The position numbers and the translations under genes are program-made. From a virus (Duplodnaviria; Heunggongvirae; Uroviricota; Caudoviricetes): a DNA stretch of 34,720 nucleotides. The stretch lies in the IMG/VR virus record IMGVR_UViG_2529293223_000013; one strand, 5' to 3'. A model generated the notes under the pieces. The model had not been told where the DNA came from. It worked only from the letters and a program-made list of their open reading frames with translations, and ran no database searches. Positions 6,604 to 34,720 of the stretch are shown here, piece after piece. Numbering within the stretch: position 1 is the stretch's first letter; each line of letters begins with the position of its first letter.

Positions 6604-6968
6604 CCGTTTAACTCCGTGGTTAATGGGTGCAACTATTTTCTGTTGGGCAGTGCATGAGACGCTATTTGACCTGGCTGGTCAGTGGATGAAACAACAGATA
6701 AAGAAAATGCGGGCAATTCGCCCGCATGTCCTGATTTGTACACACTCATTTTCCGACTGACAGTTTACATAGCCCAAACGCTATCAAATCTGACAGCCTG
6801 CTATGAGCGAAAAGCGTTAAATCTCACGATATCTGCTACCGGGAAAAATTTCGATTATCTTCGATGGGAACTTTGATAATGTAGTAAATGCCATTTTCAG
6901 CGATCACTTTTCAAGCGTGTGTAAATGATTAATGTTAAAAAATTGACTTCACTGAAATAAGGTTGCTA

Positions 6969-8121
6969 AATAGCTGCGCGGAATAGTAGATCACTTTGAG
7001 GGAACTTAGCCCGGATTGTGCGATCTGATCAATCGCCAAATCAAAACAAATCACCAACCGGACTGAGCAATGCCGATCATAGCACCAATTTCCCGTGACG
7101 AACGACGCCTGATGCAGAAAGCCATCCATAAAACACACGATAAAAATTATGCCCGCAGACTGACTGCCATGCTGATGCTGCACCGGGGCGACCGTGTCAG
7201 CGACGTTGCCAGAACGCTCTGCTGCGCCCGTTCCTCTGTTGGACGCTGGATTAACTGGTTCACGCAGTCGGGTGTTGAGGGACTGAAATCATTACCTGCC
7301 GGGCGTGCCCGTCGCTGGCCGTTTGAGCATATCTGCACACTGTTACGTGAGCTGGTAAAACATTCTCCCGGCGACTTTGGCTACCAGCGTTCACGCTGGA
7401 GTACAGAACTGCTGGCAATAAAAATCAATGAGATAACCGGTTGCCAGTTAAATGCCGGAACCGTTCGCCGCTGGTTGCCGTCTGCGGGGATTGTGTGGCG
7501 AAGGGCTGCGCCAACTCTGCGTATCCGTGACCCGCATAAAGATGAAAAGATGGCAGCAATCCATAAAGCACTGGACGAATGCAGCGCAGAGCATCCGGTC
7601 TTTTATGAAGATGAAGTGGATATCCATCTTCATCCCAAAATCGGTGCGGACTGGCAACTGCGCGGACAGCAAAAACGGGTGGTCACGCCGGGACAGAATG
7701 AAAAATATTATCTGGCCGGAGCGCTGCACAGCGGGACAGGTAAAGTCAGCTATGTGGGCGGCAACAGCAAAAGTTCGGCGCTGTTCATCAGCCTGCTGAA
7801 GCGGCTTAAAGCGACATACCGTCGGGCGAAAACCATCACGCTGATCGTGGACAACTACATTATCCACAAAAGCCGGGAAACACAGAGCTGGCTGAAGGAG
7901 AACCCGAAGTTCAGGGTCATTTATCAGCCGGTTTACTCGCCATGGGTGAATCATGTTGAACGGCTATGGCAGGCACTTCACGACACAATAACGCGTAATC
8001 ATCAGTGCCGCTCAATGTGGCAACTGTTGAAAAAAGTTCGCCATTTTATGGAAACCGTCAGCCCATTCCCCGGAGGCAAACATGGACTGGCAAAAGTGTA
8101 GCGGTATTAAGCGCAGCTATT
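6969..8121 (+). mobile_element. IS630-type insertion sequence (Tc1/mariner-like, IS630 family)
   Basis: Terminal inverted repeats AATAGCTGCGC (6969..6979) and GCGCAGCTATT (8111..8121), continuing as imperfect repeats of about 28 bp. Flanked by a TA dinucleotide on each side (6967..6968 and 8122..8123); removing the element restores CTAG. Length is exactly 1153 bp, which I recall as the IS630 length. Contains one 343-aa transposase ORF. Confidence 0.85.
7070..8101 (+). CDS. IS630-family transposase (DDE)
   Basis: 343-aa ORF inside the inverted repeats with an N-terminal HTH-like region, matching the IS630 transposase as I recall it from Shigella sonnei. Stop codon lies within the right inverted repeat. 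Confidence 0.85.
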   Translation: MPIIAPISRDERRLMQKAIHKTHDKNYARRLTAMLMLHRGDRVSDVARTLCCARSSVGRWINWFTQSGVEGLKSLPAGRARRWPFEHICTLLRELVKHSPGDFGYQRSRWSTELLAIKINEITGCQLNAGTVRRWLPSAGIVWRRAAPTLRIRDPHKDEKMAAIHKALDECSAEHPVFYEDEVDIHLHPKIGADWQLRGQQKRVVTPGQNEKYYLAGALHSGTGKVSYVGGNSKSSALFISLLKRLKATYRRAKTITLIVDNYIIHKSRETQSWLKENPKFRVIYQPVYSPWVNHVERLWQALHDTITRNHQCRSMWQLLKKVRHFMETVSPFPGGKHGLAKV

Positions 8122-8168
8122 TAGTATTTTTGGAGCAACCATTAATGTTTTTTATTTAAGGAATGTAA

Positions 8169-9587
8169 ATGACATACGCACTGATTGATAATTCAACTCT
8201 AACTGCAGTCCAAAGAATCGAGGGGAAAGTAAAAACAAGATCGAAGGACTCAGTAGATACAGACATAATAGCATTTGAGAACTATATACAGTCTATTTTG
8301 TTCTATGATCACGTTATCGCGGTTGATGATTATATTCCAGAGTACCGTGGGAGTAGGATTTCAAGTTTCAGAGAGATATTATTTCTTGATAAAGCACAAT
8401 ATGGGTTGGATGAAATTGAAAGTGAAGCAAAAAAAATATCTGATGCATTGAAACCTAAAATTCGTGGTGGAACATTTGTTAATGACGATTTTAAAAAACT
8501 AATTGAACTTCTTCAGACACATATCATATGTACATGGGACATTAGTTCAAGTGTTTATCATCTAACACTGAAGAACTTATCTGATGGAGGTAAGGAGTTT
8601 GAAAAATATGGTAACATTGCTGCTGCCATTTTTTCAGAACTGCGTGATGCTGCTGAGTCTGGTAATAGAACAAATGGCGATGTTGAACTTCTCGATCGAT
8701 TTGGCAACCCTATTCGCAAGGGGTACAAAGTTCCCGGAGCAAAATGGGGGGATGGCACATCTGCTGGTGAAGCATCAGATGCAATCAAAGCATTCGTGGC
8801 TTCGCTTGTATGGCTGGCTAATCGGGCAGTATTTTATTCTCTCACAGCTAAGTACCTTCAAGCAGATACTTTTTTATATCCATTACGTCAGGCGTATCAA
8901 CAGACATATTTAAGCCAAAACTGTCAGTATGGTTTTGACTATGCTAAACATATTGTAGAAAACTTTTCCACTTCGTTAAGTCATGATCTCATTGATATTC
9001 ATTCTGGTGGTAAAGCTGTAGCAACAGCAACTTCGCTTCCTTTATTTTCGGCATGGCTCGCAAAAGAAACTGGTGATCCAAGTTGTATTGTTGAAGCTGC
9101 TTATAACATAAGGGACAACAACGAATTTGTAAGGGCCCGTGAGAAAATGCGAGAAATAAAGCGCTTGTTTGATGAAAATGAATTGCCTCAAGCTAATAAG
9201 TCAGTAAGAGCATTGCTTACTGAAGTATCGAAAGAATCAGATTATATTCGAACTAAGTATGGGCTCAAGACTAGACAAGGTGTACCTGTAACTAAGCTTG
9301 TACATGTATACAATACTGTTGCGGCTATTAATTCCCTTCCGAAACTACCGACCTTTAATTTTAAAGTTAAAGTTCCTGATTTCTTATATGATCTTAAAAA
9401 ACCCAAGGGGTTTCGTGCTCTCTATCGAAATTTGACTAATGATCTTTCTACTGTGTGGTCGTTAGGAGAAGCTCGAGATATTCTTGGAAGTAAAGTTGTG
9501 ATAGATAATCATGCAAGAATTTACAGTCCGAAGCATGAAGAACCGCGTTTCAAAAACTCTCATTCCCCATATAAGAGCCCGATGTAG
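8169..9587 (+). CDS. Uncharacterised 472-aa cargo protein in the FI-G (Z/fun-equivalent) hotspot; function unknown
   Basis: Uninterrupted 472-codon ORF with a Shine-Dalgarno-like AAGGA 7-8 nt upstream of the ATG. Hand counts on two 60-nt stretches give roughly 30-38% G+C against about 53% in a sampled structural-gene stretch. Opposite strand to the flanking late genes. I do not recognise the sequence or any canonical motif. Confidence 0.6.
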   Translation: MTYALIDNSTLTAVQRIEGKVKTRSKDSVDTDIIAFENYIQSILFYDHVIAVDDYIPEYRGSRISSFREILFLDKAQYGLDEIESEAKKISDALKPKIRGGTFVNDDFKKLIELLQTHIICTWDISSSVYHLTLKNLSDGGKEFEKYGNIAAAIFSELRDAAESGNRTNGDVELLDRFGNPIRKGYKVPGAKWGDGTSAGEASDAIKAFVASLVWLANRAVFYSLTAKYLQADTFLYPLRQAYQQTYLSQNCQYGFDYAKHIVENFSTSLSHDLIDIHSGGKAVATATSLPLFSAWLAKETGDPSCIVEAAYNIRDNNEFVRAREKMREIKRLFDENELPQANKSVRALLTEVSKESDYIRTKYGLKTRQGVPVTKLVHVYNTVAAINSLPKLPTFNFKVKVPDFLYDLKKPKGFRALYRNLTNDLSTVWSLGEARDILGSKVVIDNHARIYSPKHEEPRFKNSHSPYKSPM

Positions 9588-10232: not shown

Positions 10233-11173
10233 TTATACCTGCGCCACGTTATACCAAGTCCCGTTAATGTATTTCTGCACCGGTCTGTAATATACGCCAC
10301 CAATGTTATCGGCAGAGTTTGAGCCGGTATCCTGAACAATAATGCCGGAATATACACACCCGGACGGTGCCTGATGTGTCCATGTCATACCATTGTTCGC
10401 AGGTTTGTATGTGGCAGCACCACCAAGCCGGATATCCCGGACATAGCGTGAATCAAAGTTGCCATAGTTAGATGGTGATACCTGCCCGTTAACAGCAAAA
10501 GTGATGCTGTTATCTGTATTTCTCTGACTGTAAAAATGCCAGCCTGCATCATCACCTAATTCAGCCACCACAGGACGACTTGAGTTTCCCCACAAATTGA
10601 ATGCGGCTTCCTTCGTGGATGTATTGCTGCTGCTGACCGTGAACTTTTTCCCGCTACCGGCACGTACTTTGGTACTTGAGACAATATCACCTGTAACACT
10701 CAGGCCATGCCCCATTGACACTCCGCCATTGGCGTTATTGATAGTCAGCGGTCTTAAGCCGTTCCATGTCCCAAATTTATCGCCAGAGGCCGTCAGCATT
10801 AAATATGTGCTGCCGCCATCATTCCTGATAAAGAATCCATAATTGCCATAAGCAATGCGCAGACCATTAGCACTGAGTGATGTAATTTCACCTCTTGAAC
10901 GGAGACCATAAGCGGAGCTGAGTGATAATTCTTCCTGAGCGTCATTGTTTCCTGTCGCCCAGCGAATTACCCCGCCCTGAACTGTTTCATGCCAGATAGT
11001 ATCTCCTTCTCCACCACGAAACTTTCTGAGATATTTTTTGCCGCCTCTGGTGCCTGAACATAAGGCCGTAGACATATAGGCATTCTGGCTTCCGCCATCC
11101 TGATTAATCGTTCCGGTCATTGAGTCGCCCTGACGATTCCAGTCACGACGCCAGCCGGGGGAGTAGCCGTCCC
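10233..11173 (-). pseudogene. H: Tail fibre protein H, C-terminal portion (gene interrupted by an IS element)
   Basis: Open frame continues from the IS boundary down to the stop at 10233 (ORF track 10233..11120). Gly/Ser/Asn-rich receptor-binding-like sequence. In frame with the N-terminal fragment once the 1304 bp of IS plus duplication is removed. Confidence 0.8.
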
Positions 11174-12467
11174 CTGAGGGATCCCCAGAAAATTTAGTAA
11201 ACCATTATCATATTGGTATACCGTTGCTGTAGAACTTTCAGCCCTGCGTCAAGTGACAGTGTGTTTAGTATGAGTGGAGAATGTCGAATCACATTCTCCG
11301 CCAGTTTTAATAACGAGATGACTCGCCTGTGCTTCACTGTATTTGCCTGATATTTATGATGTATCCCTTTGTTTTCCAGGCTGAAACCGCTTAACCACAT
11401 AATGATACTGGCTAATGTTGCGATCAGACTCAATACCGTGACCCGCCCGGATGAATGACTGGCACCAAACCGTAGTCCAAATCCCCAGCGAGGATTTTTT
11501 TCATCCCTGAAATTTTGCTCAATTTGCATTCTACGGCTGTATAATTTCATTACCTGTTTTGGCGAGAACTCAGTACTGTTTGTGAAAATAAACCATGGTG
11601 ATTTCCCGGCAGTACGAGCTTTAGCCGTCACCGATGGTCTGGTTGCTCTTTCCTTCGAGCGTTTAAATCTACGACCTTTAGGCTTACTTTTATAAAGATA
11701 AAAATGCCCTTCATGTTGTGCATTTTTATCTCGACCCAGCAGGCCTTCACCTAAATAAATTGCTGTCGTTGATGCTTTTGTGCCTGAGTCCGACACCTTT
11801 TCCCAGCCATTACCAACATTGTAATAATGATTGCCCAGTACCCGGCAAATATAGGTCCAGCCACGGGAGCGGAGCTGTTGGAACCATCGCCCCTGAAAAC
11901 CGGCATCTGTAATAACAATGACATCAGTCCCGGGGGAAAAGCACTCAGCAAGCGATTCCAGAAAACGCTCATGTACATCTGCATTCGCTGTCTGTGATGA
12001 TGGAACGACACAACTCATCAACGGTAAAGAACGCCCGTCACATGCCAGGCTTGCCCGCAAAAGCTGAAAACGAGAGGCATGATAAGCACTCCAGTCAATG
12101 AGTATCACAACACGAGACATTCCCCGCGTAATCTTTTGGGTAATTCGCTGAAAAATGGTGGAAACCTCATTTTGCAAATGTCGATTCCCCAACAGTCGAT
12201 CCACCCGCTTTATTTTGTTTTTAACTGATGCCGTACCGGTTAAATGACGCCCGATACTGGTAAGTGTGAGGGAAGCGCCATTTATTACAGCATTAGTTGC
12301 GTCAATCAGTGATTTTTGACGGTAAAGATGCAAAGGGGCCAGTATGTTGTTAAGGAAATTTTGGCATAATGAACGTGCAGGCATAGTGGTGATCTCCTTG
12401 AAATTGTTAGCACAATCAATTAGATCACATCTCACTATGCCTGTCTTGTTTTCTGGGGATTCCTCAG
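11174..12467 (-). mobile_element. IS4-family (IS10-like) insertion sequence inside tail fibre gene H
   Basis: Terminal inverted repeats CTGAGGGATCCCCAGAAAA (11174..) and TTTTCTGGGGATTCCTCAG (..12467) with one mismatch. Flanked by direct repeats of the target (tagccgtccc at 11164..11173 and 12468..12477, i.e. a 9-10 bp duplication). Encodes a transposase with IS10-like motifs. Element ends are uncertain by 1 bp. Confidence 0.85.
11194..12384 (-). CDS. IS4-family DDE transposase (IS10-like)
   Basis: ORF 11194..12480 (-) with IKRVDRLLGNRHL and YSRRMQIEQNFRDEKNPRWGFGLRF motifs, close to IS10 transposase IKRIDRLLGNRHL and YSKRMQIEETFRDLK. The track ORF starts outside the IS end, so the true start is internal; I place it at the first in-element Met (12382..12384), giving about 396 aa. 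Start codon is uncertain. Confidence 0.75.
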   Translation of the reverse strand: MPARSLCQNFLNNILAPLHLYRQKSLIDATNAVINGASLTLTSIGRHLTGTASVKNKIKRVDRLLGNRHLQNEVSTIFQRITQKITRGMSRVVILIDWSAYHASRFQLLRASLACDGRSLPLMSCVVPSSQTANADVHERFLESLAECFSPGTDVIVITDAGFQGRWFQQLRSRGWTYICRVLGNHYYNVGNGWEKVSDSGTKASTTAIYLGEGLLGRDKNAQHEGHFYLYKSKPKGRRFKRSKERATRPSVTAKARTAGKSPWFIFTNSTEFSPKQVMKLYSRRMQIEQNFRDEKNPRWGFGLRFGASHSSGRVTVLSLIATLASIIMWLSGFSLENKGIHHKYQANTVKHRRVISLLKLAENVIRHSPLILNTLSLDAGLKVLQQRYTNMIMVY

Positions 12468-13855
12468 TAGCCGTCCCCATGATTTATGTAAGTGAATTGC
12501 GCGCTGGTTGTACCGCCACCGCTTGATGTTGTTGGCGTGGTCACTCGGATAGTGATTGCAGATTTAGTTCCCATGACCTCGACGACACAACCAGCCAGGT
12601 GGATATCACCACATCCGGTATCCGTAATGATTTTGTTATTTGCATATGACCAGGAGCCTTTGCACATCCAGTACGGATGATTAAATGCACCACGGGAATC
12701 CAGCCATTCAATAAACTGAGCGGTTGTCCAGTTTCCGGCTTCAGTGCTCAAAGCGCCGCTATAAGCACGACAGGCACCGATATTTTTCGTGAAGGTATCC
12801 TTTCCCGGAATATCCGCACCGTTCTGATCTTTCTGAAGACGTTTTTCAGCATTGTCATAGGCAGACTTCACTGCTTTTGGCGTTGCGGCCAGCGTTTCAG
12901 AATCGCTGTTGATGGCACTACTTAGCTGGACAAGACCTTTTCGCGCTGTGGTGGCATCCTGTGCAGTGTATTTCCCGTTAGCAAGGTCATACGCTGTCTT
13001 AACCGCCTTTGGTGTTGCCGCAAGCGTTTCAGAATCGCTGTTGGTGGCGCTACTGAGCTGGACAAGACCTTTTCGCGCTGTAGTGGCGTCCTGTGCAGTG
13101 TATTTCCCGTTAGCAAGGTCATACGCTGTCTTAACCGCCTTTGGCGTTGCCGCAAGCGTTTCAGACGTGCTGTTGGTGGCACTACTGAGCTGGACAAGAC
13201 CTTTTCGCGCTGTGGTAGCGTCCTGTGCGGTATATTTCCCGTTAGCAAGGTCATAGGCGGCCTTTACCGCTTTCGGCGTTGCGGCCAGTGTTTCAGACGT
13301 GCTGTTGGTCGCACTGCTTAACTGAGTAAAACCTTTTGCGGTCAGCGAGGCGTCCGGGTGACGTCGTGACTGTTCGTGCTCTGCAATTTTGTCATCAACG
13401 TAATCCTGTGTCGCCATCACCGTTGTGGTGTCAATGGTCAGCTCCACCGAGGCCACACTGCTGACGATGATGACCATGCGACAGGTCTGCGAACGCCCTG
13501 AGCCTTCGGCAAGAGCTGGCTTATAACTTTCGGCCATGTTCGCCACGGCAATTAACGTTCCCGCATCATCGTACAGGCCAAGCTCACGCATCCAGAAACC
13601 GCCCACCTCCGGCGGAATAACCAGCTCTGCGATAATATAATTACTGTTTCGTTTGTCCTGGCTGATTTTGTTCAGCGTATGTCGCCAGACTTCGTGGATA
13701 AGCCCGGTCTGTCCGGCATCCGGGACAGGCAATTTACCACCGCCATCCCCGACGGCCATCGTGGTAATGTTGACCTTCCGCCCTCCCGGTGCGGTTGCCG
13801 CTGCCAGCTTTGCTGCACCGGCAGTGGTGATAACGGTTCTGAATTTTGTGCTCAT
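12468..13855 (-). pseudogene. H: Tail fibre protein H, N-terminal portion (gene interrupted by an IS element)
   Basis: N-terminus MSTKFRTVITTAGAAKLAAATAPGGRKVNITTMAVGDGGGKLPVP... is the conserved P2-type H N-terminal domain, followed by four copies of a 44-aa repeat. The track ORF reads on into the IS until a chance stop at 12464. Confidence 0.85.
12860..13340. repeat. About 3.6 tandem copies of a 132-bp coding repeat within tail fibre gene H
   Basis: The CGTTTCAG landmark recurs at 12900, 13032, 13164 and 13296 (period 132 bp) with near-identical units. Encodes repeated KGLVQLSSATNSTSETLAATPKAVKTAYDLANGKYTAQDATTAR. Generates mirror ORFs on both strands in the ORF track. Confidence 0.9.
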
Positions 13856-15301: not shown

Positions 15302-15649
15302 TCAACTCACAGGGATGGTTAACGAAAGTGGCTGGCCGGTGTCGTTGTGCTGGCCGGTTAACGTGACCGTCATTCGCCCGTCAAAGCTGCGCGCCGTGGT
15401 GACGGATGACAGGGTGACGCGGGCTTCCCATTTCAGCACGGCCATGTAACAGGCGACCTTAATCTGCAACTCAAGCGCCGGGGTCTGCGGCTGGTCAATC
15501 ATTGACGCCAGCAACGAGCCGTAATCACGACGCATCACCCGTGAGCCGACCGGCGTGCGCAGGATATCGCCGATACTCTGGCTGATATGCTCAAGGTCAG
15601 AGACAGTCAGGCCATCACTGCGATTCATTCCGAGATAACGCGCTGTCAT
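15302..15649 (-). CDS. W: Baseplate wedge protein (P2 gpW)
   Basis: 115-aa ORF, P2 gpW size and position. Confidence 0.85.
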   Translation of the reverse strand: MTARYLGMNRSDGLTVSDLEHISQSIGDILRTPVGSRVMRRDYGSLLASMIDQPQTPALELQIKVACYMAVLKWEARVTLSSVTTARSFDGRMTVTLTGQHNDTGQPLSLTIPVS

Positions 15650-16281
15650 AGAGGACTCCCGGTTGTGCCGCCGCTGTCGCCGGGGTGTTTATGGGTATGC
15701 AGTACCTTCCCGTTTGATGAGAGTTCACCGCCGGTGTGTTCAATGTTGCCGCGCATCGTCCCGCCCTTCTGCACTTCCAGCGTGCCAGTGATCAGCTTGT
15801 TTGTGCAGACCACCTCCGGCGTGTCCAGAGTGACGCGGGTTGATGCTTTCACCGTGACCACCGGCACCGTGGCAGTAACAGAATCAGAAGCCGTCACGCT
15901 GGCCGTTTTAATTCCGCTTACCGTGAGTGCACTGGTTTCAGGTTCATACTCAATCACCGCCCCGTCAGGGAAACGGATATGCAGGGCATCCGCCGACGCA
16001 GACGGCGCGGGGTTATCACCGGAATAAATCCCCGGCAGAACGAACGCCGTGTCGAGTTCACCGCCTACGGCCAGAATCAGCACCTGTTCCCCCACGGAAG
16101 GTGCCCACCATGTGCGCGAACGTCCGGCGCGATGGGTCAGCCACTGAAGCCAGTCGGTGCACATGCCGCCGGTCTGCACACGGCAGCGACCGGCATTAAG
16201 GTCGGTTTCGACGATAATGCCGGTGCGGATCATGTTGCGCAGTGCGCGCGCGAGTTCCTGAATATTTGCGAGAGTGTTCAT
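15646..16281 (-). CDS. V: Baseplate central spike protein (P2 gpV)
   Basis: 211-aa ORF, P2 gpV size, first gene of the V-W-J-I-H-G operon. Confidence 0.85.
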   Translation of the reverse strand: MNTLANIQELARALRNMIRTGIIVETDLNAGRCRVQTGGMCTDWLQWLTHRAGRSRTWWAPSVGEQVLILAVGGELDTAFVLPGIYSGDNPAPSASADALHIRFPDGAVIEYEPETSALTVSGIKTASVTASDSVTATVPVVTVKASTRVTLDTPEVVCTNKLITGTLEVQKGGTMRGNIEHTGGELSSNGKVLHTHKHPGDSGGTTGSPL

Positions 16282-16347
16282 AACGGGAAGGATGCCGCCG
16301 GGTCATACCGGCGGCAATGTGACGATGAGGTGTCAGGAATGGCACAA

Positions 16348-16800
16348 CTAACGGTCGAGGTGAGCCAGGATAATCTCTTCAATCATCTGCACATCCTCAC
16401 CGGTAAAGCCGAGCAGGGGACGCGCCGGATAATGAATTTTCTTACCGTCTTTCCGGGTTTCTTCCGACAGACCGAACTGATGCACACTGGCTATTTTCGG
16501 TGACTTCCCGCCGTAAAACTCCATTGATGCCTGTTCAGGGCTGGTGCGGATATGCAAAAAACGACTGGTGATAAGTTTCGCAAACATTTTTCGCTTAACG
16601 CGACCGGTCTTTTTTCTGGCGCTCTGCTGCTGGCGTGGTGCGTAGGGTGTGCCGTCCGGGGCTTTCTGTGCCATCACCCGACGCTGCTGACTCTGACGCA
16701 GACGTTTCGCCAGTTCGGCGCTCAGTCGCCGACGCCCTGACGGTGACAGCGACTCAATAAGTCCGGTCAGCCTGTCTTCAAAACGCTTAAACTCATTCAT
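16348..16800 (-). CDS. S: Tail completion protein (P2 gpS)
   Basis: 150-aa ORF, P2 gpS size and position. Confidence 0.85.
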   Translation of the reverse strand: MNEFKRFEDRLTGLIESLSPSGRRRLSAELAKRLRQSQQRRVMAQKAPDGTPYAPRQQQSARKKTGRVKRKMFAKLITSRFLHIRTSPEQASMEFYGGKSPKIASVHQFGLSEETRKDGKKIHYPARPLLGFTGEDVQMIEEIILAHLDR

Positions 16801-17260
16801 CCCACTTACTCACCAGTTCGCCATTGATATAAAGCTCCATCGGGCGGGTGACCGGCTCCGGCGGCGGAGGTTCCGGGATATTCTTCACATGCAGCGCGCC
16901 GCCAACCTCACTGACCAGCGTGCGCTCGGTCAGCATCAGGCTGATACTGATATCAAAGCTGCTGTCATTGTTGATGTCTGCATAAAACGTGAAGCCCTTT
17001 TTCTGGCCTTCGTCGGTGGTCATGATGTCGGGCTGATTTTCCCGCAGCCACGCCAGCACCGGCACAATGAGCAGGTCAAAATCACCGGTAAAGTCGGTCA
17101 CAATCACATTGAGCGTGTAACGCTTTTCGAATGACAGCGACGTCGCCAGTGTGGAGGCAATACTCCCGTTATCCACGAATATCCGCAGCATATCGGGGTT
17201 AGTTTTCAGCACCGTGACGGCATCAGTCAGCGCCCTGCGCAGGCTGTCGGGTTTGAGCAT
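16793..17260 (-). CDS. R: Tail completion protein (P2 gpR)
   Basis: 155-aa ORF, P2 gpR size and position. Confidence 0.85.
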   Translation of the reverse strand: MLKPDSLRRALTDAVTVLKTNPDMLRIFVDNGSIASTLATSLSFEKRYTLNVIVTDFTGDFDLLIVPVLAWLRENQPDIMTTDEGQKKGFTFYADINNDSSFDISISLMLTERTLVSEVGGALHVKNIPEPPPPEPVTRPMELYINGELVSKWDE

Positions 17261-17513
17261 CGTTTTCGTCCTGACAGTGTTTAATCATTTTTACCTGGCT
17301 GGCACAGCGCGCCAGCGCGTTCTCAAGCTGCCGGATATCGGCACTTAAATCGCCGTTCGTCTGCGGGTCACTGCCCGGCATCGGGCAAAGACTCACTTTC
17401 GGGCAGGCGTTGTGGACAATCACTGGCGTCGGTGCAGGCGGGGCGCTGGTGCAACCGGCGCACAGCATCAGGCAGGTCAGCACCGTACCAGCGGCGAAAA
17501 TCTTCGTTTTCAT
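17223..17513 (-). CDS. lysC: LysC, outer-membrane spanin lipoprotein (Rz1-like)
   Basis: 96-aa ORF with a signal peptide and lipobox (LMLCAGC), Pro-rich. Begins inside lysB in another frame and extends past its end, the classic Rz/Rz1 overlapping architecture. Confidence 0.75.
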   Translation of the reverse strand: MKTKIFAAGTVLTCLMLCAGCTSAPPAPTPVIVHNACPKVSLCPMPGSDPQTNGDLSADIRQLENALARCASQVKMIKHCQDENDAQTRQPAQGAD

Positions 17514-17793
17514 TCAGTAACCTCGTGATGGTTTTCTCGCGCTGTGCTTCACGCTTCGCGGCGTTCTCCAGTTCCTGACGCAGTGCCACCTGCGCCAGCT
17601 CGTTTTTGTCTGCCCTGGTGAGGGCAACATGAAGCTGATTTTTCAGCACGGTGATGGTCGTCTGCTGCCCGCTGGCGACGTTGTTCGCCCTGTCCAGCGA
17701 GGCGCGCAGGCTGGCATTTTTGTGTTTCACCAGAAACAGACCGGCCACCGCCAGTGATAACAACACGACCAGCACAATCATCAGCTTTGACAT
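17368..17793 (-). CDS. lysB: LysB, inner-membrane spanin (Rz-like)
   Basis: 141-aa ORF with an N-terminal transmembrane segment (IVLVVLLSLAVAGLFLV) and a coiled-coil periplasmic domain. P2 LysB size. Confidence 0.85.
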   Translation of the reverse strand: MSKLMIVLVVLLSLAVAGLFLVKHKNASLRASLDRANNVASGQQTTITVLKNQLHVALTRADKNELAQVALRQELENAAKREAQREKTITRLLNENEDFRRWYGADLPDAVRRLHQRPACTDASDCPQRLPESESLPDAGQ

Positions 17794-18206
17794 GGTTCCC
17801 GCCCCTCAAAACGCTGACGGCAGGCCGTACGTATCAGCCGGAAGAACACCGATGCCACGAGATAAATCAGCGCGGTAAAAATCCACCCGGCAGCGACCAG
17901 CGAGATAAACGTCGCCACCATCACTACCAGAGCCACTGACCGCCTGCGCCACGGCACCGGCTGCAAAAACAGCGCCGTGACAATCTTCACGGCCAGCGAT
18001 TCCGGCGGCAGCTCCCGCCCGTAGCGTTCCAGCACATACTCAGTGGCATACACGCCGACACCACCGGCAACCACACAGATAACCGTCGCCAGAATCGCCC
18101 AGGCGGCGACAAAACTGACGGCCACACTCTGCGGGTAAATCAGGGACAGTGCCAGCATCAGCGCCAGCGACACATTCAGCATCAGTGAAAGGGATAATTT
18201 CTTCAT
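17781..18206 (-). CDS. lysA: LysA, lysis timing membrane protein
   Basis: 141-aa ORF with multiple hydrophobic helices. P2 LysA size and position. Confidence 0.8.
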   Translation of the reverse strand: MKKLSLSLMLNVSLALMLALSLIYPQSVAVSFVAAWAILATVICVVAGGVGVYATEYVLERYGRELPPESLAVKIVTALFLQPVPWRRRSVALVVMVATFISLVAAGWIFTALIYLVASVFFRLIRTACRQRFEGREPCQS

Positions 18207-18220
18207 GGTGTTTACTCCGT

Positions 18221-18718
18221 TTAAGCCGGTACGCCGCCAGCGGTACGCCAGACGGTGACCAGTTTTTCCAGTGAATGCTCACGCTGACCGTAACCGGCAC
18301 CCGGCAGGGACGCCCAGATATTGCGACAGCGTGAAATGGCGCGCTCAATGCGTCCCGCCCGGATGTCATCCAGTGCACCGCGTTCGCGGATCAACTGAAT
18401 GGCGAGTCTGTCCTGTGACAACGGACTGAAATCCGGCAGGGCAAGCTGTTTGCGGTAGTGCGGCCAGAACAGGTAAAGCTGCTGATAGCGACCGGAGGCC
18501 GTGGACTTTTCACCGCGACGGTTAAACACCTTCGCCGGTCGGCCATGCGCGAACGGGTGGTCACTGTAGTCGGTGAAAATTTCCGGCTTCCCGTCCAGTC
18601 CGGTGACTATCACGTCATAGCCCCGGTTTTTCGTCAGCGGATGATTTGCCGTCCCTTCGGACACCGCCAGCATGTCGAGAAAGGCGGCGATATTCTGATG
18701 CGTGTTAATTACCGGCAT
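18221..18718 (-). CDS. K: Endolysin (P2 gpK, lysozyme-like)
   Basis: 165-aa ORF, P2 gpK size, between holin Y and lysA. Confidence 0.85.
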   Translation of the reverse strand: MPVINTHQNIAAFLDMLAVSEGTANHPLTKNRGYDVIVTGLDGKPEIFTDYSDHPFAHGRPAKVFNRRGEKSTASGRYQQLYLFWPHYRKQLALPDFSPLSQDRLAIQLIRERGALDDIRAGRIERAISRCRNIWASLPGAGYGQREHSLEKLVTVWRTAGGVPA

Positions 18719-18999
18719 TACTGTTTCCCCCTGCCCTTAAAGCGGCGCTGAATGGCAATCTCAATCACCTGATAACCGGCGATACCCAGCATGGAGCCGA
18801 TGCCGCACACCGCAGGCAGTGACAGGTCAGGAAACTGCACCAGAACAACACCGGCAACCATCGAGACAAAACCACCGAGCAACATGCGCCCGATAAACAG
18901 ACGCGGGGTGATGGGTTCACCACCGGCAAGCACCTTGCCGACAACAATCAGCACCCCAATCATGAAAAGCGACAGGACGCTTTTTTCTTCTGCTGTCAT
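18718..18999 (-). CDS. Y: Holin (P2 gpY)
   Basis: 93-aa ORF with hydrophobic transmembrane segments. P2 gpY size and position. Confidence 0.85.
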   Translation of the reverse strand: MTAEEKSVLSLFMIGVLIVVGKVLAGGEPITPRLFIGRMLLGGFVSMVAGVVLVQFPDLSLPAVCGIGSMLGIAGYQVIEIAIQRRFKGRGKQ

Positions 19000-25912: not shown

Positions 25913-28118
25913 ATGAAATTAAAACTCAAAAACGTAACAAGCTATCATAAAGAATATTTTACTGAGTTAGATTTATCCAAAAAAATAAACATATTGTATG
26001 GACAAAATGGTTGTGGAAAATCTACCATATCAAATTATTTTTACAATCCTAAAGACACCGCCTATAAGGAATGTGTATGCGAACCCATCGATAATTATCG
26101 AACCCTAGTCTACAACTCAAAATATATAGAAGATAATTTTTATAATGCAAAAGAGCAAAAAGGTATATTTACCCTCAGTCAAAAAAATGCAGAAATTGAA
26201 AAAATACTATCTGAAAAAGAAGAGCTAAACAAATCACTAGCACATCAGCATAAAGAAAAAAAGAATTTATCGAAAAACTCCATGAAGCGAAAAACAAAAA
26301 AGAGCAAGAATGCATAAATTCCATATGGAATAAGACCAAAGACATAAGAAGTTCAGAATTAAAACAATTAATGAAAGGTCAAATAGGAAGCAAAGCCACT
26401 TTCTATTACCATCTAAAAAAGTATACTCCACAAACTGATATTGATATAAAATCATTAATACAATCTTATAGCAAACTTCTCGAGTTTAAAGGAAAAGAAA
26501 TACCTCTGATAACTCCTTATAAAGGATATGTTTTATCTGAAGAAACTCAAAAAACATTATCCACACCAATTATTGACTCTAGCAACAGCTATTTATCTGA
26601 AGCAATAAAAGAGCTACAAAATATTGATTGGATTAAACAAGGCAAAGAGCTATATTTAAATGGAGAAATTTGTCCATTTTGCCAAAGGGACACAATAGAT
26701 GATAATTTTATTAAAGCCATTGAATCTATCTTTGATGAAACATACTCAAGAAAAGTAGATCAAATACAACAAATAAAACTATCTTATGATAATGCCATTA
26801 AAAATCATCATGAAGAAATAAAGAGTAACATTTTATCATGTGAGGTGATAAACCAAGACGAAAAAGATAAAAGTCTTTCATATGTTAAGGCATTAGAAAC
26901 TATTGCAGAAAAAACATTAAACTATTGGATAATAAAATAGAGAATCCATCTATAAGCATTGTGCTGGAGTTTGAAAAGTCGATAGAGGAAAAACTATTAG
27001 AAGATATAGAACAATACAACAATAAAATTAACGAGTTCAATGACAAAGTAAAAAGATTTAATAATAGCGAAATAGATATTCGCGAAAAGATGTGGGCAGC
27101 AATCAGAGACTTATGTGGCGCGGAATTTGAAATACTATCAGACTGCGAAAGAAACTTTCAAGAAAAATATGAAAACGCTGCATCCTTCATGCAGGAAATA
27201 AAAAGAAAAGAAGAGATCAACACAAATGAAATCAATGAACTAAGAAATAAAACATCAAGTGTAGATGCAACAATAGATGCAATAAACTCACGACTTAAAT
27301 TTCTTGGCATCTCTGGTTTTAGCATTGATAAACACGCCGAACTCAAAGATAAGTATATAATATCCCGCGATGGAAACAATAGAAAACAAGATGTATATCG
27401 CTCATTAAGCGAAGGTGAAAAAACATTAATAACGTTTCTATATTTTTTAGAATGTTGCAAGGGTAAAACAAATGAAAATGATACTGATATGCGTGATAAA
27501 CTCATAGTCATAGATGATCCTATATCAAGTTTATCTCAAAACTATGTTTTCGACATAGCATCCATGATCCATCATGACATAATTGAAAAAGGCATTTCAT
27601 CAAAAATAATAATCCTCACCCATAATCTTTATTTCTTCCATGAGTTAATAAAACTCGCCTCTAAAAAAGGAATAAATTTTAAACGTGACTACTTTCTTGG
27701 CAGAATAAACAAAAATGAATTTAGCACCATTAGTGCTATAGATAAAAAAAGTGTGCAAAATGAATACCAATCCCTTTGGCAAGTATTAAAAGATGCAAAA
27801 GAGAAAAAAATCAACAAAATAATAATCCCCAATATTATGAGAAATATACTTGAGTATTACTTTGCATTTGTTCATAGAACTGACGCATTAGAGGCAAAGC
27901 TTACTGAATTAACAAATGATGAAAATAACAGCCATTTCCGTGCCTTTTACAGATATATAAACAGAGGCTCTCACTCCGACGCAATAAACATAACAGATAT
28001 GGGCGATATTGAACCTGAGAAATACTTAGAACTCTTGCACAAAATATTCAGAATGACTGGTGATGAGAAACATTACTTAACAATGATGGGTGAAGAAGAG
28101 GTAAATGTTACCGCTTAG
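25913..28118 (+). pseudogene. PrrC/RloC-like ABC-type ATPase with CxxC motif and C-terminal putative anticodon-nuclease domain; reading frame broken by two frameshifts
   Basis: Three consecutive ORFs (25913..26317, 26371..26940, 26925..28118) in frames 2, 1 and 0 form one gene of about 735 codons. It carries Walker A (GQNGCGKST), a coiled-coil region with CPFC, an ABC-signature-like LSEGEKTL, Walker B (LIVIDDPISS), an H-loop-like ILTHN, and a C-terminal R-x3-E...H arrangement (RNILE...H). A hand count on one 60-nt stretch gives about 22% G+C. RBS AGAGGG precedes the ATG. Frame changes fall in overlaps that contain A7 (26256..26262) and A6 (26909..26914) tracts. Confidence 0.6.
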
Positions 28119-33191: not shown

Positions 33192-34205
33192 ATGGCAATC
33201 AAAAAACTCGATGATGGTCGATATGAAGTGGACATCCGCCCTACTGGACGTAATGGAAAACGCATCCGTAGGAAGTTTGATAAGAAAAGCGAAGCTGTCG
33301 CTTTCGAGAAATACACGTTGTACAACCACCACAATAAAGAATGGCTATCAAAACCAACAGACAAGCGACGTCTGTCGGAGCTGACACAGATCTGGTGGGA
33401 TTTAAAGGGTAAACACGAAGAGCATGGGAAATCTAATCTTGGAAAAATTGAAATCTTCACAAAAATAACGAATGACCCATGCGCATTTCAAATTACGAAA
33501 TCGCTTATCAGCCAATACTGCGCCACCCGAAGAAGTCAGGGTATTAAACCTTCGAGTATCAATCGTGATTTAACATGTATTAGCGGCATGTTTACAGCCC
33601 TGATTGAAGCGGAGTTATACTTTGGTGAGCACCCTATCAGAGGGACAAAAAGGCTTAAGGAGGAAAAACCAAACACAGGCTATCTCACGCAGGAAGAAAT
33701 TGCCTTACTGCTCGCAGCTCTTGACGGCGACAACAAAAAGATTGCGATTCTTTGCCTGAGTACTGGAGCACGTTGGGGAGAAGCAGCTCGTTTGAAAGCA
33801 GAAAATATCATTCATAACCGCGTCACGTTTGTTAAAACGAAAACAAACAAACCACGCACCGTCCCGATCTCAGAGGCTGTTGCCAAAATGATCGCGGATA
33901 ACAAACGAGGTTTTTTATTCCCTGATGCTGATTACCCTCGCTTCAGACGAACAATGAAAGCAATAAAACCGGATTTGCCAATGGGGCAAGCCACACATGC
34001 ACTAAGGCACAGCTTTGCCACTCATTTCATGATTAATGGAGGAAGTATTATCACGCTACAACGGATACTAGGTCACACGCGGATTGAGCAAACTATGGTT
34101 TACGCTCATTTTGCGCCAGAGTACCTTCAGGACGCCATTTCTCTTAATCCGCTGAGAGGTGGTACTGAGGCCGAGAGTGTCCACACAGTGTCCACAGTAG
34201 AGTAA
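33192..34205 (+). CDS. int: Tyrosine integrase (P2 Int)
   Basis: 337-aa ORF, the P2 Int size. C-terminal catalytic residues of tyrosine recombinases are present (R...HALRHSFAT...LGHTRIEQTMVYAH). Confidence 0.9.
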   Translation: MAIKKLDDGRYEVDIRPTGRNGKRIRRKFDKKSEAVAFEKYTLYNHHNKEWLSKPTDKRRLSELTQIWWDLKGKHEEHGKSNLGKIEIFTKITNDPCAFQITKSLISQYCATRRSQGIKPSSINRDLTCISGMFTALIEAELYFGEHPIRGTKRLKEEKPNTGYLTQEEIALLLAALDGDNKKIAILCLSTGARWGEAARLKAENIIHNRVTFVKTKTNKPRTVPISEAVAKMIADNKRGFLFPDADYPRFRRTMKAIKPDLPMGQATHALRHSFATHFMINGGSIITLQRILGHTRIEQTMVYAHFAPEYLQDAISLNPLRGGTEAESVHTVSTVE

Positions 34206-34285: not shown

Positions 34286-34720
34286 ATCTCCCTGCCGATG
34301 GCGTTTAACGACTTACGCATCGCCCCATTTACTGCGGCGGTGGTCACCATCATGATCAACTCCGGCGCGTACATTGCGGAAATCACGCGTGGTGCGGTGC
34401 TGTCTATCCACAAAGGTTTTCGTGAAGCAGGACTGGCGCTCGGTCTTTCACGTTGGGAAACCATTCGCTACGTCATTTTACCGCTGGCACTGCGTCGTAT
34501 GCTGCCGCCGCTGGGTAACCAGTGGATCATCAGCATTAAAGACACCTCGCTGTTTATTGTTATCGGCGTGGCGGAACTGACCCGTCAGGGGCAAGAAATT
34601 ATTGCCGGTAACTTCCGCGCCCTTGAGATCTGGAGCGCCGTGGCGGTGTTCTATCTGATTATTACCCTGGTGCTGAGCTTTATTCTGCGTCGTCTGGAAA
34701 GAAGGATGAAAATCCTGTGA
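34286..34720 (+). CDS. Host amino-acid ABC transporter permease, 3' portion (truncated at the prophage junction)
   Basis: Frame opens at 34286 just past the end of phage-like sequence and runs to a stop at 34718..34720. It encodes the hydrophobic C-terminal part of a polar-amino-acid ABC permease (HisM/ArtM/YecS-like) including the EAA-like loop region (...[16 protein letters not shown]...). No N-terminal part is present upstream. Confidence 0.6.

Follow-up and report, generated by a model that had tools for sequence, protein, structure and literature searches.

The 34,720-nucleotide (nt) virus record IMGVR_UViG_2529293223_000013, referred to here in its full length as the window, comprises a whole P2-like prophage that is GC-rich and lies in reverse orientation. 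On its minus strand, the overlapping genes lysB and lysC form, with an estimated probability of about 95%, a two-component spanin of the overlapped arrangement in a P2-like (Peduovirus) Escherichia prophage. The first gene, lysB (17368..17793, minus strand, ATG to TGA), encodes a protein of 141 amino acids that is the candidate inner-membrane spanin (i-spanin; Rz-like); the second, lysC (17223..17513, minus strand, ATG to TGA), encodes a 96-amino-acid precursor of the candidate outer-membrane spanin (o-spanin; Rz1-like). Measured from the start of lysB, the lysC ATG comes after 280 nt and is in the +1 frame, and lysC extends 145 nt beyond the lysB stop. Codon mapping places LysB residues 94-141 and LysC residues 1-49 within the same 146 nt of dual-coding sequence (17368..17513, minus strand). 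What characterizes the overlapped class (Summer 2007; Kongari 2018) is an o-spanin gene whose start codon falls within the i-spanin gene, in a different frame, and whose stop codon lies beyond that of the i-spanin gene, and P2 is listed as “ovl” in SpaninDB (PMC6139136). At its 3' end lysC shares a further 38 nt (17223..17260, minus strand) with the tail-completion gene R (16793..17260), an overlap also annotated in P2, and at the other end of the pair 13 nt are common to lysA and lysB. A GAGG Shine-Dalgarno sequence (17521..17524, minus strand; upstream sequence GAGAAAACCATCACGAGGTTACTGA) precedes the lysC ATG by 7 nt and falls within the lysB coding sequence; the same GAGG is marked for P2 LysC in SpaninDB (PMC6139136 supplement). 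The original prediction, made from the letters of the DNA, had placed this pair at 17223-17793 without stating the strand and had described lysC as starting inside lysB in another frame and ending past its stop; the coordinates were exact and the geometry was confirmed.

The comparison with P2 lysBC that had been proposed with that prediction yielded lysB and lysC of P2 at 97-98% amino acid identity. A 901-nt region of DNA was 96.8-97.4% identical to P2 and close relatives, LysB was identical to P2 LysB at 137 of 141 positions (97%), and LysC to P2 LysC at 94 of 96 (98%). Relative to P2 (AF063097 / NC_001895), LysB carries four substitutions (R3K, M49V, M130L, and P134S) and LysC two (R2K and P34H); M49V is rare (2 of 76 viral-contig loci), and His34 of LysC is the commoner allele. 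P2 has the same protein lengths (141 and 96 amino acids), the same frame relation, the same 146-nt and 38-nt overlaps, the same Shine-Dalgarno sequence and CAG|C lipobox, and the same order of neighbors (X-Y-K-lysA-lysB-lysC-R-S), and its GenBank record annotates the same pair of coding sequences with the same overlaps. The downstream products R and S were identical to those of P2 at 152 of 155 and 145 of 150 positions, respectively.

Both frames are intact across the 146 nt that they share, and both are under purifying selection. The length of the lysC open reading frame (ORF) was not used as evidence, because long spurious ORFs abound in the GC-rich window: 78 ORFs of at least 90 amino acids were counted, many of them spurious (antisense, in alternative frames, or overlapping real genes). 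By the curated cutoffs of family models, LysB belongs to NCBIfam equivalog TIGR03495 (phage_LysB; 169.8 bits, cutoff 92.75, model positions 2-135 of 135), and LysC to NCBIfam equivalog NF038368 (P2_Rz1; 129.8 bits, cutoff 27) and to Pfam PF23793 (LysC; 63.5 bits, cutoff 27, full model 1-69). LysB also matched PHROG 89, labeled “Rz-like spanin” (E = 1.7e-59), as did LysC an “Rz-like spanin” PHROG. Among 67 distinct close haplotypes taken from viral contigs, lysC was intact at 96 codons in all 67, although the length of LysB varied at its C terminus (127, 141, 147, or 156 amino acids); the LysB and LysC alleles of the locus studied here are ordinary ones, found in many viral contigs. In a survey of one genome per species, lysC lay in the +1 frame in 74 of the 78 evaluable loci, which came from enterobacterial genera including Escherichia, Kluyvera, Kosakonia, Yersinia, Citrobacter, Enterobacter, and Erwinia; across these loci the lysC/lysB overlap measured 146-176 nt and the lysC/R overlap 8-71 nt. 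Codon-by-codon comparison of 66 distinct 96-codon lysC alleles showed that, in the stretch covered by lysC only, entropy at codon positions 1, 2, and 3 was 0.50, 0.32, and 1.08, and that the synonymous share of codon differences was 0.59 in the lysC frame versus 0.12 and 0.08 in the other two. Variation concentrated at third positions, together with this synonymous bias, implies that the lysC frame is translated and selected.

The shared sequence is less variable than lysB-only sequence (0.164 versus 0.277 among close relatives), and the constraint is divided between the frames. Opposite the LysC signal peptide, the third position of LysB codons is the most variable, which points to dominance of the LysB frame, and the LysB motif R-WY--LP--V-RLH-R encoded there is invariant. 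On the 3' side of the lipobox, variability peaks at the third position of LysC codons; here mature LysC dominates and the tail of LysB is looser. This pattern agrees with the published observation that o-spanins are conserved and i-spanins diverge in the C terminus encoded by the overlap (PMC6139136), and it makes lysB/lysC a clear illustration of two frames sharing constraint under dual coding. In the overlap with R, variation sits on R third positions, so that R dominates and the C-terminal tail of LysC is weakly constrained. Many LysC entries from NCBI and its Prokaryotic Genome Annotation Pipeline (PGAP) are 81 amino acids long and begin at an internal Met16 (MLCAGC...), so that the signal peptide is left without its n- and h-regions. 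The start that gives 96 amino acids is probably the real one, given the conserved upstream segment MK..FAAG...CL and the Shine-Dalgarno sequence. In practical terms, an o-spanin gene of this kind is easily overlooked or mis-started, as in the PGAP calls at Met16 that drop the signal peptide. Rare LysB-LysC fusion ORFs of 185-189 amino acids in the protein database (P0122, P0135, and P0146-P0170) were considered as products of a programmed frameshift, and this was rejected: their junctions are scattered over the overlap and their clusters, from assemblies, are nearly all singletons, which indicates sequencing errors or mutations.

LysB has the features of an i-spanin. Residues 4-22 (LMIVLVVLLSLAVAGLFLV; 17728..17784, minus strand) reached a Kyte-Doolittle 19-residue mean of 3.12 and were the only segment above threshold, giving a single N-terminal transmembrane segment ahead of a largely helical domain that is predicted to be periplasmic (a presumed N-in/C-out orientation). 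An AlphaFold2 model built from a 41-sequence alignment (mean predicted local distance difference test [pLDDT] 82.5) showed one continuous helix over residues 3-105, transmembrane segment included (pLDDT 84-96 there), then a short helix at 109-115 and a low-confidence tail bearing Cys120 and Cys126, both of which are invariant in the family alignment. As modeled, LysB thus consists of an N-terminal transmembrane segment, a continuous periplasmic helix of about 80 residues, and a short tail with the two invariant cysteines. Position 49 (codon 17647-17649) is valine in this LysB but methionine in 74 of 76 viral-contig loci and in 112 of 114 database representatives. This conservative change falls within the periplasmic helix, and no consequence of it is apparent.

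LysC is predicted to be an outer-membrane lipoprotein whose signal peptide ends in CAG|C. The putative signal peptide (codons 1-20; 17454..17513, minus strand) has an n-region with Lys2 and Lys4 and an h-region IFAAGTVLTCLML, and the N terminus reads MKTKIFAAGTVLTCLMLCAG|CTS, with a hydrophobic peak over residues 5-23; the predicted mature part of 76 amino acids begins CTSAPPAP. The lipobox (17451..17462, minus strand) is encoded by TGC GCC GGT TGC, that is, Cys18-Ala19-Gly20-Cys21, where Cys21 is the residue predicted to be lipidated. Judged against the consensus [LVI][ASTVI][GAS]C with Cys at position 15-35, the lysines of the n-region, the h-region, Ala at -2, Gly at -1, and Cys21 are all present, and position -3 is occupied by Cys. 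Across 45 full-length homologues, down to 60% identity, the signal peptide is conserved, and Cys21, Thr22, Cys37, Cys43, Cys70, Cys80, and an NGDLS motif are invariant. An Asp at position +2 of a lipoprotein is the established signal for inner-membrane retention in the Lol pathway; in LysC this position is the invariant Thr22, so the retention signal is absent and sorting to the outer membrane is expected. The AlphaFold2 model of LysC (mean pLDDT 68) consists of a signal helix (residues 7-20), an extended Pro-rich segment (21-55), and a helix (56-89). For P2 LysC, SpaninDB gives LipoP signal peptidase II sites at 20|21 and 17|18 (PMC6139136 supplement), a result that we expect to carry over, since the two proteins are identical over residues 3-33 and differ at residues 2 and 34 only.

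The cysteine at -3 is a family trait. Among 71 homologues with a full signal peptide, 58 have CAGC and 67 have Cys at -3 (two of the other four have Ser). Its codon, TGC, combines bases 2 and 3 of LysB Val111 (GTG) with base 1 of Arg112 (CGC); both LysB residues are invariant, and with Val-Arg fixed, the -3 position of LysC is mainly limited to Cys, Ser, Phe, and Tyr. From this codon arrangement, the nonconsensus residue is best regarded as a side effect of dual coding with the invariant Val111-Arg112 of LysB. Nonconsensus lipoboxes are tolerated by spanins, AWAC being a verified case (PMC6139136). The practical consequence is that pattern-based lipoprotein predictors reject the LysC lipobox.

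The proposed mode of action is drawn from the model for lambda Rz/Rz1 (PMC6139136) and from P2 genetics. Both proteins would be late products of the Ogr-dependent O operon; LysB would be anchored in the inner membrane, and LysC would be lipidated at Cys21, cut by signal peptidase II, and sorted by the Lol pathway to the outer membrane. Binding between the two proteins would span the periplasm, passing through the meshwork of peptidoglycan, with disulfides probably stabilizing it. After triggering of holin Y and removal of the peptidoglycan by endolysin K, the complexes set free in this way would fuse or disrupt both membranes, and the progeny would be released. Periplasmic cysteines from which disulfides could putatively form are present in both partners (Cys120 and Cys126 in LysB; Cys37, Cys43, Cys70, and Cys80, all invariant, in mature LysC), and SpaninDB counts the same two and four for P2 (PMC6139136). 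The Rz/Rz1-type overlapped arrangement named in the original prediction is supported by the literature, where LysB/LysC are described as Rz/Rz1-like (PMC3091744) and P2 serves as the published example of the overlapped spanin class (PMC6139136).

Several points weigh against this interpretation. To our knowledge, only lambda Rz/Rz1 has been shown to undergo lipidation, to form disulfide bonds, and to bring about membrane fusion, and neither LysB nor LysC matched the Pfam Rz (Phage_lysis) or Rz1 family at E ≤ 0.01; a weak match was obtained to phrog_214, a second “Rz-like spanin” PHROG (E = 1.4e-4). The AlphaFold2 model of LysC is of only moderate confidence (pLDDT 68), and the prophage carries an IS4-family insertion sequence (IS) in its tail fiber gene H. 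Both the PROSITE PS00013 expression and the strict lipobox consensus fail on LysC because of Cys at -3, SpaninDB records “No hit by Prosite” for P2 LysC (PMC6139136 supplement), and the experimental work on spanins was essentially all done with lambda (PMC6139136). The LCAGC lipobox of the original prediction is accordingly present, though not in canonical form, and the lipoprotein signal on which that prediction was to stand or fall gave a split outcome, negative by PROSITE and reported positive by LipoP for the P2 protein. We do not take the PROSITE failure as a refutation, given that Cys at -3 is conserved family-wide and that LipoP is reported to be positive for P2. As no similarity to the lambda Rz/Rz1 families was detected with Pfam, the mechanism is carried over by analogy, and in that sense LysB and LysC are functional analogues of Rz/Rz1 and not members of those sequence families.

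Were lysC a chance open frame in a GC-rich region, with lysB alone expressed, both the many long spurious ORFs in alternative frames (among the 78 in the window) and a lipobox without a PROSITE pattern match would be as expected. We give this practically no chance. It is effectively refuted by the third-position and synonymous bias in the lysC frame where no other gene overlaps, and it also has to contend with the curated family models that LysC passes, with a 96-codon ORF left intact in 67 of 67 haplotypes despite the changing C terminus of LysB, with Cys21 and four more cysteines that are invariant in 45 homologues, and with a Shine-Dalgarno sequence 7 nt from the ATG. Furthermore, it was reportedly P2 genetics that defined lysC (Markov 2004, as cited in PMC3091744). 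A different objection accepts both genes and makes their products regulators of lysis timing that act on the holin or endolysin and do not disrupt the outer membrane. The P2 GenBank notes (“regulation of lysis” and “affects timing of lysis”) speak for it, as does the name “LysB family phage lysis regulatory protein” that NCBI still gives to some homologues, and the near-exclusive reliance of spanin experiments on lambda (PMC6139136) leaves it some room. Nonetheless, we regard timing regulation as highly improbable: the topology features of both proteins fit an i-spanin/o-spanin pair, and losing a spanin itself delays lysis, which renders the old P2 label compatible with a spanin. Complementation of lambda Rz/Rz1 nulls by lysB together with lysC has reportedly been observed as well (Markov et al. 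2004, J Bacteriol 186:4628). Later literature has also reclassified LysB/LysC as spanins, with P2 as the example of the overlapped class (PMC3091744, PMC6139136).

The spanin assignment might hold and the copy still be inert, the cassette of a defective prophage being without current role and merely not yet degraded. Damage elsewhere in the prophage favors this. The IS4-family element (11174-12467; transposase ORF 11194..12480, minus strand, NF033591, 360 bits; 19-bp terminal inverted repeats at 11174-11192 and 12449-12467) splits H, leaving an N-terminal part at 12464..13855 and a C-terminal part at 10233..11120, and this insert of about 1.3 kb is absent from phage relatives; the prophage is probably unable to make infectious particles. 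An IS630-family element (6966-8124, plus strand; inverted repeats at 6966-6985 and 8105-8124; transposase 7070..8101, NF033545, 258 bits) is also present. Finally, three consecutive ORFs of 134, 189, and 397 amino acids (25913-28118, plus strand), which occupy the old/tin cargo site of P2 between cos/Q and A, match positions 4-135, 156-338, and 341-724 of the 727-amino-acid PADLOC candidate PDC-S06 (Pfam AAA_13, with some PrrC similarity); judging from these matches, they are a single gene in three pieces. We nevertheless consider an inert copy unlikely. All five lysis genes are intact, as are ogr and the tail genes on either side, the LysB and LysC alleles are ordinary ones in many viral contigs, an IS in H would block infectivity and not late-gene expression or lysis, and the insertions may be recent. 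It is conceivable, in our estimate only barely, that there is more to the locus than an ordinary spanin: the conserved nonconsensus lipobox (Cys14, Cys18, and the two LipoP sites) might be functional, giving two lipoprotein forms or slowing signal peptidase II and with it timing spanin maturation, or the host might keep the cassette of an IS-damaged prophage for its own use.

Seen as a spanin pair, lysB/lysC resembles lambda Rz/Rz1 in combining a type II inner-membrane protein with an outer-membrane lipoprotein, in a second gene that is shifted to the +1 frame relative to the first, in standing last in the lysis cassette, in its periplasmic cysteines, and in a presumed common mechanism. It differs in that lambda Rz1 is wholly embedded in Rz, whereas lysC passes the end of lysB and enters R. 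Lambda Rz1 is a Pro-rich, unstructured peptide of 40 amino acids with one Cys (PMC6139136), in contrast to mature LysC with 76 amino acids, a predicted helix of 34 residues, and four Cys; lambda Rz is built as CC1-linker-CC2 (two coiled coils), in contrast to the one continuous helix predicted for LysB; and the Rz1 lipobox conforms to the consensus, in contrast to CAGC in LysC. Closer in layout are Fels-2, the Burkholderia phages KS14 and KL3, and HP1/HP2, in which the genes overlap in the same way, lysC ends in R, and signal peptidase II cleavage falls before a Cys at about position 19-21 (PMC3091744; SpaninDB). These pairs are more distant in sequence (33-48% identity for KS14 and KL3), their lipoboxes are canonical or different (LSGC in Fels-2, LCAC in KS14, and LLAC in HP2), and their overlap with R spans just 8 bp, against the 38 nt found here. 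T4 PseT.3/PseT.2 (separated genes) and T1 gp11 (unimolecular) belong to the same functional class and share outer-membrane disruption at the final step of lysis, yet they show no overlap or are a single protein, and they come from unrelated sequence families (PMC6139136).

The pair described here is real but ordinary, an instance of already known biology: the spanin literature counts LysB/LysC as one of three paradigm two-component spanins, beside lambda Rz/Rz1 and T4 PseT.3/PseT.2. The region is present in 1,604 of 5,426 complete E. coli genomes, where RefSeq annotates both genes, and it has little importance beyond correct annotation.

Y, K, lysA, lysB, and lysC lie on the same strand, contiguous or overlapping, which puts the pair in the position expected of spanin genes within a lysis cassette, and the P2 lysis module is made up of the same five genes (PMC3091744). 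With Y, K, and lysA directly upstream of lysB/lysC (100%, 100%, and 93% identical to P2, respectively), the cassette is complete, as the original prediction had it. The holin Y (18718..18999, minus strand) is identical to P2 gpY at 93 of 93 positions and matches PF04550 (Phage holin family 2; 143.6 bits) and the holin family PHROG 175. The endolysin K (18221..18718, minus strand) is identical to P2 gpK at 165 of 165 positions and is a homologue of the lambda R lysozyme, matching the lambda lysozyme structures 1AM7 (E = 4.6e-44) and 3D3D (E about 4e-44); the P2 record describes it as “endolysin; essential for host cell lysis.” Despite the match to 1AM7, K had no Pfam match at E ≤ 0.01. LysA (17781..18206, minus strand) has several hydrophobic segments predicted to span the membrane, is identical to P2 LysA at 131 of 141 positions, and matches NCBIfam NF038378 (123.4 bits). 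PMC3091744 describes it as an antiholin, and for P2 it is regarded in the literature as the antiholin or a gene of lysis timing. Its PHROG family of proteins with multiple transmembrane segments, phrog_162, is labeled “endolysin,” a label that looks carried over from a neighboring or fused K.

Within lysC, a hairpin (17298..17316, minus strand) corresponds to a feature annotated in the GenBank record of P2 as “putative transcription attenuator; O operon.” Its 8-bp stem is kept, one A-to-G change pairing as G.U, with a folding energy of -16 kcal/mol. This stability equals that of shuffled sequence (z = -0.02), a U-tract is lacking, and the hairpin does not appear in the list of a terminator scan; an attenuator function is unsupported by these tests. 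A scan of the whole window against Rfam returned no RNA family. Further downstream, two P2 features from the interval between S and V are missing here: orf30, encoded on the opposite strand in P2, and an annotated rho-independent terminator of the O operon. The gap between S (16348..16800) and V (15646..16281) measures just 66 nt (16282-16347).

The remaining cargo of the prophage lies between FI and G, where the IS630-family element and a neighboring ORF occupy the P2 Z/fun cargo site (6966-9587). This ORF (8169..9587, plus strand; 472 amino acids) had no match in Pfam, NCBIfam, or PADLOC, and its only match was a full-length one to phrog_13435 (“unknown function”); it is an uncharacterized cargo gene in a site known for phage defense genes. 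The window ends with ogr at the left and, at the right, with int (33192..34205) and a fragment of a host ABC permease gene (34298..34720).

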